Shown here: positions 4,094 to 8,146 of the stretch, in pieces
Layout: every line of letters begins with the position of its first letter
Numbering within the stretch: the first letter of the stretch is position 1
From: Candidatus Kerfeldbacteria bacterium
Lineage (GTDB): Bacteria > Patescibacteriota > Patescibacteriia > SBBC01 > JACPUP01
Direction of reading: 5' to 3'
Assembly (NCBI GenBank): GCA_016192205.1
Contig: JACPUP010000029.1
Location: forward strand, 1-55,578
Length of the DNA: 55,578 nt
The notes under the pieces: model-generated
Told to the model about the DNA's origin: nothing
Database searches by the model: none
What the model saw: the letters and a program-made list of their open reading frames with translations, nothing else
Made by a program: the position numbers and the translations under genes

Positions 4094-5515
4094 ATGGATA
4101 ACGAATCTGGAATTCCGGAGCACGGGACGAAAGTCCTCATCGCGCTTGGTGGAAGCCTCATGAGTTTCCTGGTGTTCGTTGGTTCAGCGTCGGCCGGTTC
4201 CACCCCGAACGAGATCCGCGTACTCACACCAGCTGGTGAAAAACAGCAGGCGTTTGCCTTCGGTGACAAAGAGCTCCGCCGCGGTGCGGAAATCGCCACT
4301 GGTGACGTTGACGGCGACGGGGAACTCGAGATTGTCGCTACGCCAACGTACAGAGCCAAGCCGAATGTACGAGTCTTTTCATCGAGCGGGACACTCCGGA
4401 CGGACTTCGACGTCCTCGACCGTAAGTTTACTGGTGGTGTGAACCTTGCCGTCGGTGATGTCACCGGTGACGGCGTTGCCGAAATCGTTATCGGTGCTCG
4501 CGATGGCGGCGGACCGACCGTTGAAGTCTACACGAACACGGGACAGCGACTGGCAACCTTCGTTGCGTACAGCCCGAAATATCGCGGCGGAGTCGACGTC
4601 GCCACCGGCGACATTGACGGCGACGGGGTCGAGGAAATCGTCACTGCCGCCGGATTCGAATCTTCGGGACACATCCGCGCGTTCGAGGGCGATGGACGTG
4701 AAACCGTGACCTCGGTTTTCCCTTTTGGTACCAGCGGGCAGTTCGGTGCACGCGTCGCCGTCGGCGACGTTGATCCCGACAGCCCGTATGAGGAAATCGT
4801 CGTCGTACCGTTATCCGATCATGCACCGCAGGTCAAGATTCTTTCGAACCGCGGCAAGACGCTCAAGACCATCACTGCTTTTTCCGCCAGCCGCACCAGT
4901 GGCCTGTCCGTGACGACCCTCCAGGCCGATGCTGACGCGAGCGAGGAAATTGCCGTCATTGTCCGCAACTGGCGTCCGCACCTGCGCGTTTTGAATGCCG
5001 ACGGGTCGCGCCTCACGAGTACGTACGCATTTGCCAAATCGTTCGTCGGTGACGTTTCCTTGACCGCAGGCGGTGCCAACACGCTCCTGGCGTCCGTAAC
5101 AAAACTCCGGGCCAGCGGCCGCAGCGACCTTCCCCGCTCCATCGAGATTGACTTGTCCGACCAAAAACTCACGTATTACCGCAAAGGTGTTACGGTGGCA
5201 ACCCGAGCAGTCTCCACCGGCAAATGGTCAATGCCCACACCCACCGGGACGTTCAAAACCCGCAACAAGATTCGCACCGCCTACTCAAGCCGGTATGCGC
5301 TCTACATGGATTACTGGATGGCGGTCACGCCCGATGGCTCCTACGGCATCCACGCGCTGCCGTTTTGGAAATTGAAGAACGGCGGTCGCATCTATGAAGG
5401 CGAAGACCACCTTGGGACACCCGTATCCCATGGCTGCATTCGCCTTGCGCCGAGCGCTGCGCGCGAGCTCTACGAATGGGCACCCGTGGGCACAGCCGTC
5501 TTCATTCGTCCGTAA
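4094..5515 (+). CDS. Secreted/membrane-anchored FG-GAP repeat propeller fused to a YkuD-type L,D-transpeptidase domain
   Basis: N-terminal hydrophobic segment. Repeated GDVDGDGELEIV / GDVTGDGVAEIV / GDIDGDGVEEIV / GDVDPDSPYEEIV (FG-GAP/VCBS-like). C-terminal YkuD catalytic motif HGTPVSHGCIRL. Confidence 0.85.
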   Translation: MDNESGIPEHGTKVLIALGGSLMSFLVFVGSASAGSTPNEIRVLTPAGEKQQAFAFGDKELRRGAEIATGDVDGDGELEIVATPTYRAKPNVRVFSSSGTLRTDFDVLDRKFTGGVNLAVGDVTGDGVAEIVIGARDGGGPTVEVYTNTGQRLATFVAYSPKYRGGVDVATGDIDGDGVEEIVTAAGFESSGHIRAFEGDGRETVTSVFPFGTSGQFGARVAVGDVDPDSPYEEIVVVPLSDHAPQVKILSNRGKTLKTITAFSASRTSGLSVTTLQADADASEEIAVIVRNWRPHLRVLNADGSRLTSTYAFAKSFVGDVSLTAGGANTLLASVTKLRASGRSDLPRSIEIDLSDQKLTYYRKGVTVATRAVSTGKWSMPTPTGTFKTRNKIRTAYSSRYALYMDYWMAVTPDGSYGIHALPFWKLKNGGRIYEGEDHLGTPVSHGCIRLAPSAARELYEWAPVGTAVFIRP

Positions 5516-5575: not shown

Positions 5576-7255
5576 ATGACCTCCCGCACGAAACTCGGGC
5601 TCACATTTTTCAGCCTCATCGTCCTCCTCGCGCTCGCCGTCCTCGTTGACGTGCCTGGCGGCCCGGATCTGCGTGTCGGCTCGTGGCACAAGGAAATGAA
5701 AGTCCACCTCGGGCTTGATTTGAAAGGCGGGACGCGGCTCATCTACGACGCGGACGTGAGCGGTTTGCCCGGGGGTGAGGAATCCTCGGCGTTGGACGGC
5801 GTGCGGGACGTGATTGAACGTCGCGTCAACCAGTTTGGCGTGTCCGAACCGATCGTCCAGACGAGCGAGGCCGGCGGACAGCACCGGATTATCGTTGAGT
5901 TGGCTGGTGTGCAGGATGTCGACGCTGCGATACAACAGATTGGTGAAACACCGCTGCTGGAATTCAAAGAGCTAGGCACACCGGCTCCGCTGATTCCCGA
6001 AGACCTGGCCGCGGCCGAGGCCTTCAATCGAGAACAACGCGCAAAAGCCGAGCGGGCGCTGGCTGACGTCCGTGCGCCCAATGCGGATTTTGCCGCCATC
6101 GCAAGCGAACGCTCCGAAGACACGGGGTCGGCGCCGAGCGGCGGTGACATTGGTTTTCAGCGGAGGGAAAATCTCGTCACCGAATACGCCGACGTCCTCT
6201 TCGATCAGCTCGAAGACGGTCAGCTGTTCGATCAACTGGTAGAATCGCCGTTTGGCTATCACGTCATCAAACGAACGGAATCACGCGCGTCCGGGGAAGG
6301 GGAGAGCGCCGTGACCGAGGTGCGCTCACGTCACATCCTTGTCCGGACGCGAGAAACCCATCCAGAAGAGACCGAGCAAACCTACGTCGAGACTGGACTG
6401 ACCGGCGAGCACCTCGACAACGCCCAGGTATCGTTTGACCAGCAGACGGGCCAGCCGGACGTTGTGTTGAAATTCAACGACGAGGGAAAACAACTCTTTG
6501 GCGATATTACCACTCGGAACCTCAACCAGCCGGTTGGCATTTTCTTGGACGGTCTCCCCATCTCCGAGCCGATTGTCCAAACCGAGATTACGACTGGTGA
6601 AGCGACGATCAGCGGTGACTTCGATCTGTCAGAGGCGAAGGAGCTCGCCCAGCGTCTCAATGCTGGTGCCCTGCCCGTGCCGATTACCCTCGTGAACCAA
6701 ACGACCGTCGGCCCGACGCTCGGTCGCGTCTCCATCGAGCGCAGTTTCTTCGCTGGTCTCGTTGGCCTGGCCGCGGTAGTACTGTTCATGCTCCTCCAGT
6801 ACCGATTCCTCGGCTTCATCGCGGTGCTCTCCCTCTTCGCGTACACAGCGTTGACCTTTGCCATTTTTAAACTCTGGCCGGTCACGCTCACGCTGGCCGG
6901 TGTGGCCGGGTTCATTCTGTCTATTGGCATCGCCGTGGATGCGAATATCCTCATTTTCGAACGCATCCGCGAGGAACTGCGCAGTGGCCGGCTCCTCGGA
7001 GATGCCGTCGAGGAAGGCTTCCAGCGCGCCTGGCTCTCCATCCGTGACTCCAACGTCTCGAGCCTCATCACGACGTTCATCCTGGCCTGGTTCGGCACGG
7101 GCATCATCAAGGGGTTTGCCATCACCTTGGCGATCGGGATCCTCGTCTCCATGTTTTCGGCCGTGACCATCGCTCGAACATTACTGCGCCTGACTGCCAA
7201 GCGGTGGCTCCAGCGTCACCCGAAGTTCCTGAGCGTTGAGCACGTGAGCGAGTAG
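5576..7255 (+). CDS. secD: Protein-export membrane protein SecD with an inserted parvulin-like module
   Basis: N-terminal TM, HLGLDLKGG, IIVELAGV, GETPLLEF, LDGLPISEPIV, and a C-terminal 6-TM SecD/F core (GIAVDANILIFERIREE). The insert at about aa 133-268 carries GGDIGF...SPFGYHVIKR. Confidence 0.93.
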   Translation: MTSRTKLGLTFFSLIVLLALAVLVDVPGGPDLRVGSWHKEMKVHLGLDLKGGTRLIYDADVSGLPGGEESSALDGVRDVIERRVNQFGVSEPIVQTSEAGGQHRIIVELAGVQDVDAAIQQIGETPLLEFKELGTPAPLIPEDLAAAEAFNREQRAKAERALADVRAPNADFAAIASERSEDTGSAPSGGDIGFQRRENLVTEYADVLFDQLEDGQLFDQLVESPFGYHVIKRTESRASGEGESAVTEVRSRHILVRTRETHPEETEQTYVETGLTGEHLDNAQVSFDQQTGQPDVVLKFNDEGKQLFGDITTRNLNQPVGIFLDGLPISEPIVQTEITTGEATISGDFDLSEAKELAQRLNAGALPVPITLVNQTTVGPTLGRVSIERSFFAGLVGLAAVVLFMLLQYRFLGFIAVLSLFAYTALTFAIFKLWPVTLTLAGVAGFILSIGIAVDANILIFERIREELRSGRLLGDAVEEGFQRAWLSIRDSNVSSLITTFILAWFGTGIIKGFAITLAIGILVSMFSAVTIARTLLRLTAKRWLQRHPKFLSVEHVSE

Positions 7256-7258
7256 CGT

Positions 7259-8146
7259 ATGTTTCAGATTATCCGCCACCGGCGCATCTTCCTCGCCTTC
7301 TCCGCGCTCCTCGTTGTCCTGGGAGTGGCGGCCTTTGCCGTGTGGGGTCTGAAACTCGGTATTGATTTTACCGGTGGCACCATTGTCCAGTACGAAGGCG
7401 TGGACGAGACGGCGCGCGGTGTATTGCGGTCGACGTATGCGGACGCAGGCCTTTCCCCGGTCCTGCAACGCGTTGGCGCGGACGGCGTCAGCATCCGATT
7501 GAGTGAACTGTCGCTCGACGATCAGGCGTCGCTCCGCGACGCGGTCAGCGCTGCGTTGCCAAACATCACCGAGACGTCGTTCGAGACTATTGGTCCGACC
7601 ATTGGTCGTGAGCTTCGTCAGAAAGCGGTCGTGGCCACTGCCCTCGTGTTGGTTGGCATCGTCCTCTACGTTACCTGGGCGTTTCGTCGCGTGTCGATCG
7701 GACCAGTACGCGCCTGGGTCTACGGTGCCGCCACCATCATCGCGCTCGCTCACGATTTGGTTGTCGTCATTGGCGTGTTCGCGATCCTGGGAACATTTTT
7801 CAATGTGGAAATCGACAGCCTCTTCGTCACTGCCCTTCTGACAGTCCTTGGGTTCTCCGTCCACGACACTATCGTGGTGTTTGACCGGATCCGCGAACGT
7901 CTTGGCCTGACCGAAACACAACAGTTTGCAGAGACGGTCAACGAGAGCGTCAACCAGACCATGGTCCGCTCGCTCGCGACCTCGGCCACAACACTCCTCG
8001 TGCTCGTCGCGCTCTTCCTCTTCGGCGGCGAGAGCATTCGCTACTTCACTCTGGCATTGGTCGTTGGCATCGTCTCTGGTACGTACTCCTCCATTTTCGT
8101 CGCCAGTCCGTTGCTCGTGGTCTGGGAGCGCTGGAGAAACACTTAA
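7259..8146 (+). CDS. secF: Protein-export membrane protein SecF
   Basis: GIDFTGGT motif and the SecF TM core (SVHDTIVVFDRIRE). Starts 3 nt after secD. Confidence 0.93.
   Translation: MFQIIRHRRIFLAFSALLVVLGVAAFAVWGLKLGIDFTGGTIVQYEGVDETARGVLRSTYADAGLSPVLQRVGADGVSIRLSELSLDDQASLRDAVSAALPNITETSFETIGPTIGRELRQKAVVATALVLVGIVLYVTWAFRRVSIGPVRAWVYGAATIIALAHDLVVVIGVFAILGTFFNVEIDSLFVTALLTVLGFSVHDTIVVFDRIRERLGLTETQQFAETVNESVNQTMVRSLATSATTLLVLVALFLFGGESIRYFTLALVVGIVSGTYSSIFVASPLLVVWERWRNT

Follow-up and report, generated by a model that had tools for sequence, protein, structure and literature searches.

SecD proteins of a Patescibacteria class carry a parvulin-like domain in P1 that is best read as a circular permutant

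The handover of chains from SecYEG to folding helpers is an open question, and in model bacteria parvulins are found only loosely or transiently at SecDF. Troman et al. reported SurA bound to the holo-translocon; every one of their AlphaFold models has the SurA parvulin domains sitting on the SecDF P1 head, and P1 is considered a polypeptide-binding domain (PMC9987972). For M. pneumoniae, a cross-link between SecD and the active parvulin lipoprotein Mpn444 has been described (bioRxiv 10.1101/2024.09.05.611430), and PpiD-YfgM associates with SecYEG (PMC9643414). The P1 head itself is mobile and coupled to proton flow (review, PMC8669966). Here, we analyze a secD gene in a 55,578-nucleotide stretch of DNA from a Candidatus Kerfeldbacteria bacterium (contig JACPUP010000029.1; this whole stretch is referred to as the window) whose product carries a parvulin-like domain within P1. 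Nucleotide positions are those of the window, and all SecD features lie on the forward (+) strand.

The parvulin-like insert in SecD is real. The secD open reading frame (5576-7255; 559 residues, stop included, as given in the open reading frame list) matches the NCBIfam secD model TIGR01129 with 390 bits at a cut-off of 244.4 and SecDF of T. thermophilus (3aqp) with an E-value of 9e-82 in a PDB sequence search. A preliminary description of this locus had reported about 135 residues inserted into the periplasmic head of SecD at 5972-6379 (+), equivalent to SecD residues 133-268, and the sequence it quoted agrees exactly with the translation. The segment lies between the conserved blocks GETPLLEF (residues 123-130) and ETGLTGEHL (residues 272-280). 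In a MAFFT alignment 141 residues separate GETPLLEF from TGLTGEHL in this protein compared to 27 in an insert-less Patescibacteria SecD of 467 residues (G082), so the net insertion is about 114 residues; the insertion therefore stands while its size is smaller than first proposed. Insert-less SecDs of other Patescibacteria classes (450-470 residues) match in two pieces, breaking at about residues 132-140 and 263-272. From the alignment with G082, the split matches, the Rotamase match and the structure prediction, the inserted domain is delimited to about residues 135-265 (5978-6370). It is located where the P1 base meets the head at the latter's N-terminal edge, within P1 as had been proposed but outside the body of the head.

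Profile and sequence searches assign the insert to the parvulin family. Searched with the full SecD protein, Pfam family PF00639 (Rotamase) matches residues 149-234 over positions 13-96 of its 97-position profile (E 4.5e-15, 56.8 bits; cut-off 21.7) and PF13616 (Rotamase_3) matches with an E-value of 3.6e-14 (53.7 bits, cut-off 22.5). Judged by these profile scores the Rotamase match is far beyond chance. The SurA, PrsA and PpiC models of NCBIfam also match the insert, at lower scores than TIGR01129 on SecD, and the best PDB sequence matches of the insert are SurA P2 (E 2e-19) and the parvulin domains of PrsA. The chaperone families SurA_N, SurA_N_2 and SurA_N_3 have no Pfam match in SecD. The G+C content of the insert is 0.58-0.63, the same as that of its flanks. 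A recent horizontal insertion was also considered and is ruled out because composition is uniform across the insert.

Structure prediction yields a separate and confidently folded domain. We ran AlphaFold2 (AF2) on the whole SecD protein with 30 homologues and on the domain alone (residues 126-282) with 24 homologues. The domain model has a predicted local distance difference test score (pLDDT) of 93.5 and a predicted template modelling score (pTM) of 0.81. The same elements are found in the whole-protein model, where the insert has pLDDT values of 86-94 and the overall pTM is 0.46. Together with the Pfam, NCBIfam and PDB matches to SurA and PrsA, this upholds the parvulin identity given in the preliminary description. 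The predicted elements are arranged in the order α1 (residues 141-166), α2 (172-179), β2 (191-195), α4 (202-211), β3 (222-224), β4 (227-239), a six-residue loop and a last strand, β1' (246-257). Helix α1 (5996-6073) opens the domain, and the PF00639 match begins within it at profile position 13. It is followed by the motif S180-E181-D182 (6113-6121), by the glycine motif and strand β2 in GGDIGFQ (residues 189-195, 6140-6160) and by strands β3 and β4 (residues 222-239, 6239-6292), which contain FGYHVIK (residues 226-232). The hairpin loop GEGESA (residues 240-245, 6293-6310) varies in length among homologues and bridges what are the former C- and N-termini of a canonical parvulin. The relocated strand β1' (VTEVRSRHILVR, 6311-6346) is predicted at a pLDDT of about 98 in the domain model. 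DSSP assignment of the AF2 model recovers all four strands and the β4-β1' hairpin at high pLDDT. Across 24 single-insert SecDs with 46% mean column identity, S180, D182, G189, G190, G227, H229 and H253 are invariant, with H253 present in 24 of 24.

The order of these elements favors a circular permutation of the parvulin fold. Canonical parvulins follow the order β1-α1-α2-α3-β2-α4-β3-β4, which the insert does not, making it a circular permutant. In canonical parvulins such as Pin1 and Par10 the sheet has four strands with β1 placed between β2 and β4, the histidine-bearing strands β1 and β4 are antiparallel neighbors, the two histidines are side by side and the chain termini are adjacent, so a β4-loop-β1 hairpin reproduces the canonical sheet. 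The PF00639 match does not include profile positions 1-12, which cover β1, and this strand is consequently missing at the N-terminal side. Instead the HILV strand (VRSRHILVRT region, residues 246-257) comes after β4: SRHILVR occupies residues 251-257 and FGYHVIK residues 226-232, the inverted order that had been noted previously. When the strand is moved to the front, the Pfam match extends over profile positions 1-96 and rises to 62.3 bits from 60.5 bits in native order. In hhalign comparisons with 25 canonical parvulin domains the re-permuted sequence scores 218.6 over 105 columns, while native order scores 200.3 over 87 columns with β1 unaligned, and the re-permuted consensus 'evr--HIL' falls on canonical 'ev-AsHILI'. 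These re-permutation tests support homology of β1' and canonical β1 at the level of sequence. The insert can moreover be aligned colinearly to SurA, first to P1 minus its β1 and then to the β1 of P2, with 'esavTEVrsRHILvrt' aligning to 'ISVTEVHARHILLKP'. The preliminary description had left open either a circular permutation or a truncated second copy. The AF2 hairpin, the invariant H253 and the re-permutation tests favor permutation, while the second-copy idea may still explain where the sequence came from, namely a SurA P1-like domain without β1 followed by a P2 β1.

This arrangement is predicted to restore the catalytic site of parvulins. S180, D182 and H229 align with SurA P2, with S180-E181-D182 falling on its SxD ('SqD') motif, and the H253 strand aligns with β1 of SurA P2. 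We take S180-E181-D182 to occupy the position of S111-x-C113 in Pin1. In the permuted domain the chain would run through α1, β2, α4, β3 and β4, make a short Gly-rich turn and end with the SRHILV strand, which would pair back on β4 to rebuild the usual sheet and a site composed of H229, H253 and S180-x-D182. The new termini would be located at the β1/α1 junction and be joined to SecD. The two-histidine site and the contact between H229 and H253 are inferred from the DSSP assignment combined with general knowledge of the fold.

A second, larger type of SecD contains a parvulin within a parvulin. In 14 double-insert SecDs (examples are L045-L060, P0022, P0028, P0045 and L041) a first unit spanning α1 to β4 is followed by a complete canonical parvulin and then by one extra strand. 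The inner canonical domain retains both histidines in 14/14. Two of the 14 proteins keep both the β4 histidine of unit 1 and the histidine of the last strand, 11 have lost both, and in one the two are discordant. This pattern fits a nested topology in which the β4-β1' hairpin of a permuted parvulin would have received a canonical one while the outer copy decays, and it lends support to the proposed strand assignment. The losses in the outer copy probably represent few independent events. In a weakly resolved FastTree phylogeny of the core domains (about 90 columns), inner domains group with canonical tandem parvulins (support 0.945) and outer domains are monophyletic (0.979), positioned beside the single inserts with weak support (0.66).

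The insert is characteristic of one class of Patescibacteria. Among 61 relatives of the same class, representing 43 families, 59 have a match and by row count about 58 carry the insert in a SecD-sized frame. These insert-carrying SecDs are either about 550-600 residues long with a single insert or about 670-740 residues long with a double insert. A word-seeded search brought up some 30 clusters of SecD proteins that share this Pfam architecture; those with named sources all come from 'Patescibacteria group bacterium' and are annotated as plain SecD. Across 200 genomes sampled evenly from the phylum, matches embedded in SecD are essentially limited to this class, the exceptions being G135, G201 and the SecDF fusions of G140 and G116. 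Most other Patescibacteria classes have a SecD of 450-470 residues without an insert. In G140 and G116, both from another class, SecD and SecF form a single protein. The fusion of G140 is 1021 residues long (L041 100-3165 (-)) and has kept, at this P1 site, a parvulin cassette whose first unit is degenerate; that of G116 (L042) is an open frame of 1035 residues. When contigs were searched with the single insert, the only matches were unrelated parvulins of myxobacteria and other phyla. Tandem parvulins prevailed in a search of a representative library, where about 26 of the 150 best matches are of the SecD type, which is not a total count.

Permuted parvulins are also found outside SecD. The preliminary description had suggested looking for a separate prsA/surA gene, and the same genome does encode a PrsA-like parvulin. 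This 347-residue protein on contig C47 (L001 1315-2358 (-)) consists of a transmembrane anchor, a SurA_N_3 domain and a parvulin domain that is 29% identical to the SecD insert. The Rotamase match of this protein begins at position 17 of the profile, and 'QGYHIVE' precedes its 'RHILIRAK' strand. Twenty further PrsA-like proteins of 305-408 residues, from inside and outside the class, likewise have GYH followed by a strand of the (E)VRA(S/R)HILI type, giving 21/21 with the protein of this genome, and P0054 exhibits the same permuted order. A β1-like HILV strand in front of the domain is present in none of these 20 proteins; the H-V-(L/V) triplet that two of them have some 95 residues upstream is read as part of a chaperone-domain helix. 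The second histidine in the relocated strand is kept in 17 of the 20 and is replaced by glutamine in three proteins of one family, which belongs to the same order. These three (L062, L063 and L064, from G003, G013 and G016) have the sequences VHASQIFI, VHLLQITI and VRVAQIFI, respectively. In the weakly resolved tree PrsA-like parvulins are mostly placed apart from the SecD inserts. Judged by sequence order, the permuted arrangement seems to extend through the phylum and to have arisen before the SecD fusion, and the donor of the insert was likely a membrane-anchored PrsA-like protein of the phylum. The genome further encodes a 212-residue cyclophilin with an N-terminal hydrophobic anchor (contig C59, L081 1324-1962 (+)), the third of its prolyl isomerases that face outward, and, in a 473-residue frame with an FKBP_C match, a probable trigger factor.

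Overall, we consider it probable that this SecD contains a folded, permuted parvulin of about 114 residues in P1, between LLEFKEL and YVETGLTG, that would act in cis as an isomerase or holdase. By homology to SecDF, P1 of this SecD should face outward. Unfolded chains leaving SecYEG would be captured by the mobile P1 head and the SecD parvulin would act on them in cis, isomerizing prolyl bonds, serving as a holdase or combining the two, and would represent a covalent version of what PpiD, SurA, PrsA and Mpn444 do in trans. The fusion would thus make the trans contact between SecDF and a parvulin permanent. A foldase placed on the SecDF motor would be consistent with the conserved catalytic motifs and with the published contacts between SecDF and parvulins.

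Several observations weigh against this reading. Several parvulin domains that match their family well are catalytically inactive, for example SurA P1 and PpiD. Plain DSSP strand ends give the hairpin a 239-246 register, which would put the two histidines on opposite faces unless the strand contains a bulge. In a Foldseek search with the domain model, good scores were obtained only for a SurA-like peptidyl-prolyl isomerase of B. fragilis (8hm3/8hm4; E 1e-7, query template modelling score (TMq) 0.52, 126 columns) and canonical single-domain parvulins are not among the top 50; the fold assignment therefore rests on sequence profiles and AF2 secondary structure. The same genome has two other outward-facing prolyl isomerases, the PrsA-like parvulin and the membrane-anchored cyclophilin, so that the insert adds to the foldase set, replaces none of it and fills no obvious gap. 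Lastly, the SecD of G049, a genome of the same class (L035 835-2373 (+)), is 512 residues long and contains a 54-residue Asp/Gly/Thr-rich segment at the insertion site without a Rotamase match. The parvulin is therefore dispensable at least there, and G049 represents an apparent secondary loss or replacement.

Foldseek with the full SecD model returned only SecDF and AcrB. In the sequence of 8hm3/8hm4 a strand (GFHIIQLIEKRGD) is followed within a few residues by RINTRHILLK, and this β4 and the next β1 may form a similar hairpin. The BfUbb paper (PMC11467351) makes no statement on the fold of 8hm3.

The insert could also be a folded but catalytically silent parvulin that gives the P1 head an additional surface or clamp to bind unfolded substrate, a holdase like the parvulins in PpiD or SurA P1. 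Chaperone parvulin domains without isomerase activity are well known, and in double-insert SecDs the permuted copy stays in place despite having lost both histidines in 11 of 14 cases, indicating that the scaffold is useful without a catalytic set. However, S180, D182, G189-G190, H229 and H253 do not vary among the 24 single-insert SecDs in spite of their 46% mean identity, and these residues match active SurA P2 position for position. We therefore regard a silent domain as unlikely in the single-insert proteins. Still less is to be said for a docking or regulatory module that, without acting on substrate, adjusts how the P1 head swings or binds an envelope factor (for example the PrsA-like protein, YidC or cell-wall enzymes). 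The position of the insert at the base/head junction, where the head pivots, would suit such a role and the pTM of 0.46 for the full-length model is compatible with mobile domains, but no partner gene is found beside secDF, where the neighbors are the FG-GAP/YkuD protein and secF, and conservation is centered on the catalytic motifs instead of a surface patch, which makes this role highly improbable. A chimeric reading frame caused by assembly or annotation error, or a segment that is simply the normal P1-head subdomain, is ruled out by an architecture that some 58 independent genomes and some 30 clusters of proteins share and by insert-less SecDs that are devoid of exactly this segment, as well as by the continuous G+C content across the insert and a Rotamase match well over cut-off.

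Beyond a parvulin acting in cis, SecDF of these bacteria could function as an energy-coupled extracytoplasmic foldase. The permuted parvulin would be suspended from the base/head junction, around which the P1 head swings with proton flow, so that each stroke might bring the captured chain to the isomerase site and let it go again, resulting in folding driven by the proton motive force outside the cell, where there is no ATP. We consider this extension a distant prospect. If it were true, the permuted parvulin would be the standard extracytoplasmic parvulin of a whole phylum and a topologically new class of this fold. In the literature searched we found no description of a SecD-embedded or a permuted parvulin, while databases already display both Pfam domains on such SecD proteins. 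Circular permutation of the parvulin fold is likewise undescribed in the papers searched, and the natural single and nested forms could show its origin. The class-wide fusion of a parvulin to P1 of SecD represents a 'Rosetta stone' argument for functional coupling, and with both activities in one polypeptide this coupling becomes directly testable in a minimal system. The genomes of Patescibacteria are very small and the cells live attached to hosts; that 0.88 Mb still encode three prolyl isomerases facing outward suggests that surface-protein folding matters to these organisms.

The remainder of the protein has the SecD domains, with PF21760, PF22599 and PF02355 all above their Pfam cut-offs. 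The first transmembrane helix (TM1) comprises residues 3-25 (5582-5650) based on an AF2 helix and hydrophobic sequence. It is followed by the N-terminal part of the P1 base (SecD_1st, PF21760, residues 75-133, 5798-5974, E 5.1e-18), which is closed by the LLEFKEL strand (AF2 strand, residues 128-134). The P1 head subdomain (SecDF_P1_head, PF22599) spans residues 268-368 (6377-6679; E 1.2e-28, profile positions 12-114) and the C-terminal membrane domain (SecD_SecF_C, PF02355) residues 372-541 (6689-7198). In the AVDAN motif of the membrane domain D455 and N457 are invariant, D455 across 30 homologues. D455 is the conserved membrane Asp that belongs to the proton path and aligns with the AVDGN motif of T. 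thermophilus SecDF. The secF gene (7259-8146 (+), 295 residues) begins 3 nucleotides past the secD stop and encodes a protein with a PF02355 match (E 2.4e-57) and a Sec_GG motif. The gene upstream of secD (4094-5515 (+)) has a 473-residue product that combines FG-GAP repeats with an L,D-transpeptidase domain of the YkuD type at its C-terminus (E 1.9e-24).

With the SecDF structures of T. thermophilus (3AQP, 5YHF) and D. radiodurans (5XAN, 5XAP) this SecD shares TM1, the P1 base, the P1 head and an RND-type (resistance-nodulation-division) membrane domain with its conserved Asp, and secF is an adjacent gene here. Residues 39-154 and 275-552 align to residues 29-144 and 160-437 of the T. thermophilus chain. 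Between these blocks T. thermophilus SecDF has about 15 unaligned linking residues (145-159), whereas about 120 residues (155-274) form the parvulin domain in our protein, and none of the solved SecD or SecDF structures contains a peptidyl-prolyl isomerase domain. The insert has S-x-D, GGDxG, FGxH and the second histidine strand in common with SurA P2 (1M5Y, 4G2P), PrsA (2JZV, 4WO7), Par10/PpiC and Pin1, together with the same predicted helices and strands. In contrast to the β1-α1...β4 order of these canonical parvulins it is built as α1...β4-β1 with a long α1 of 26 residues, and it is located in a membrane transporter instead of a SurA_N-type chaperone. The PrsA-like proteins of Patescibacteria show the same permuted order but have a SurA-like domain at the N-terminus and are chaperones in their own right. 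The job proposed for the insert, receiving and folding chains that leave SecYEG, is performed in trans by PpiD-YfgM in E. coli, by PrsA in Bacillus, by SurA on the holo-translocon and, in M. pneumoniae, by Mpn444. PpiD, PrsA, SurA and Mpn444 are separate proteins with chaperone (NC) domains of their own, while the SecD insert represents the parvulin module alone, covalently linked to the translocation motor.

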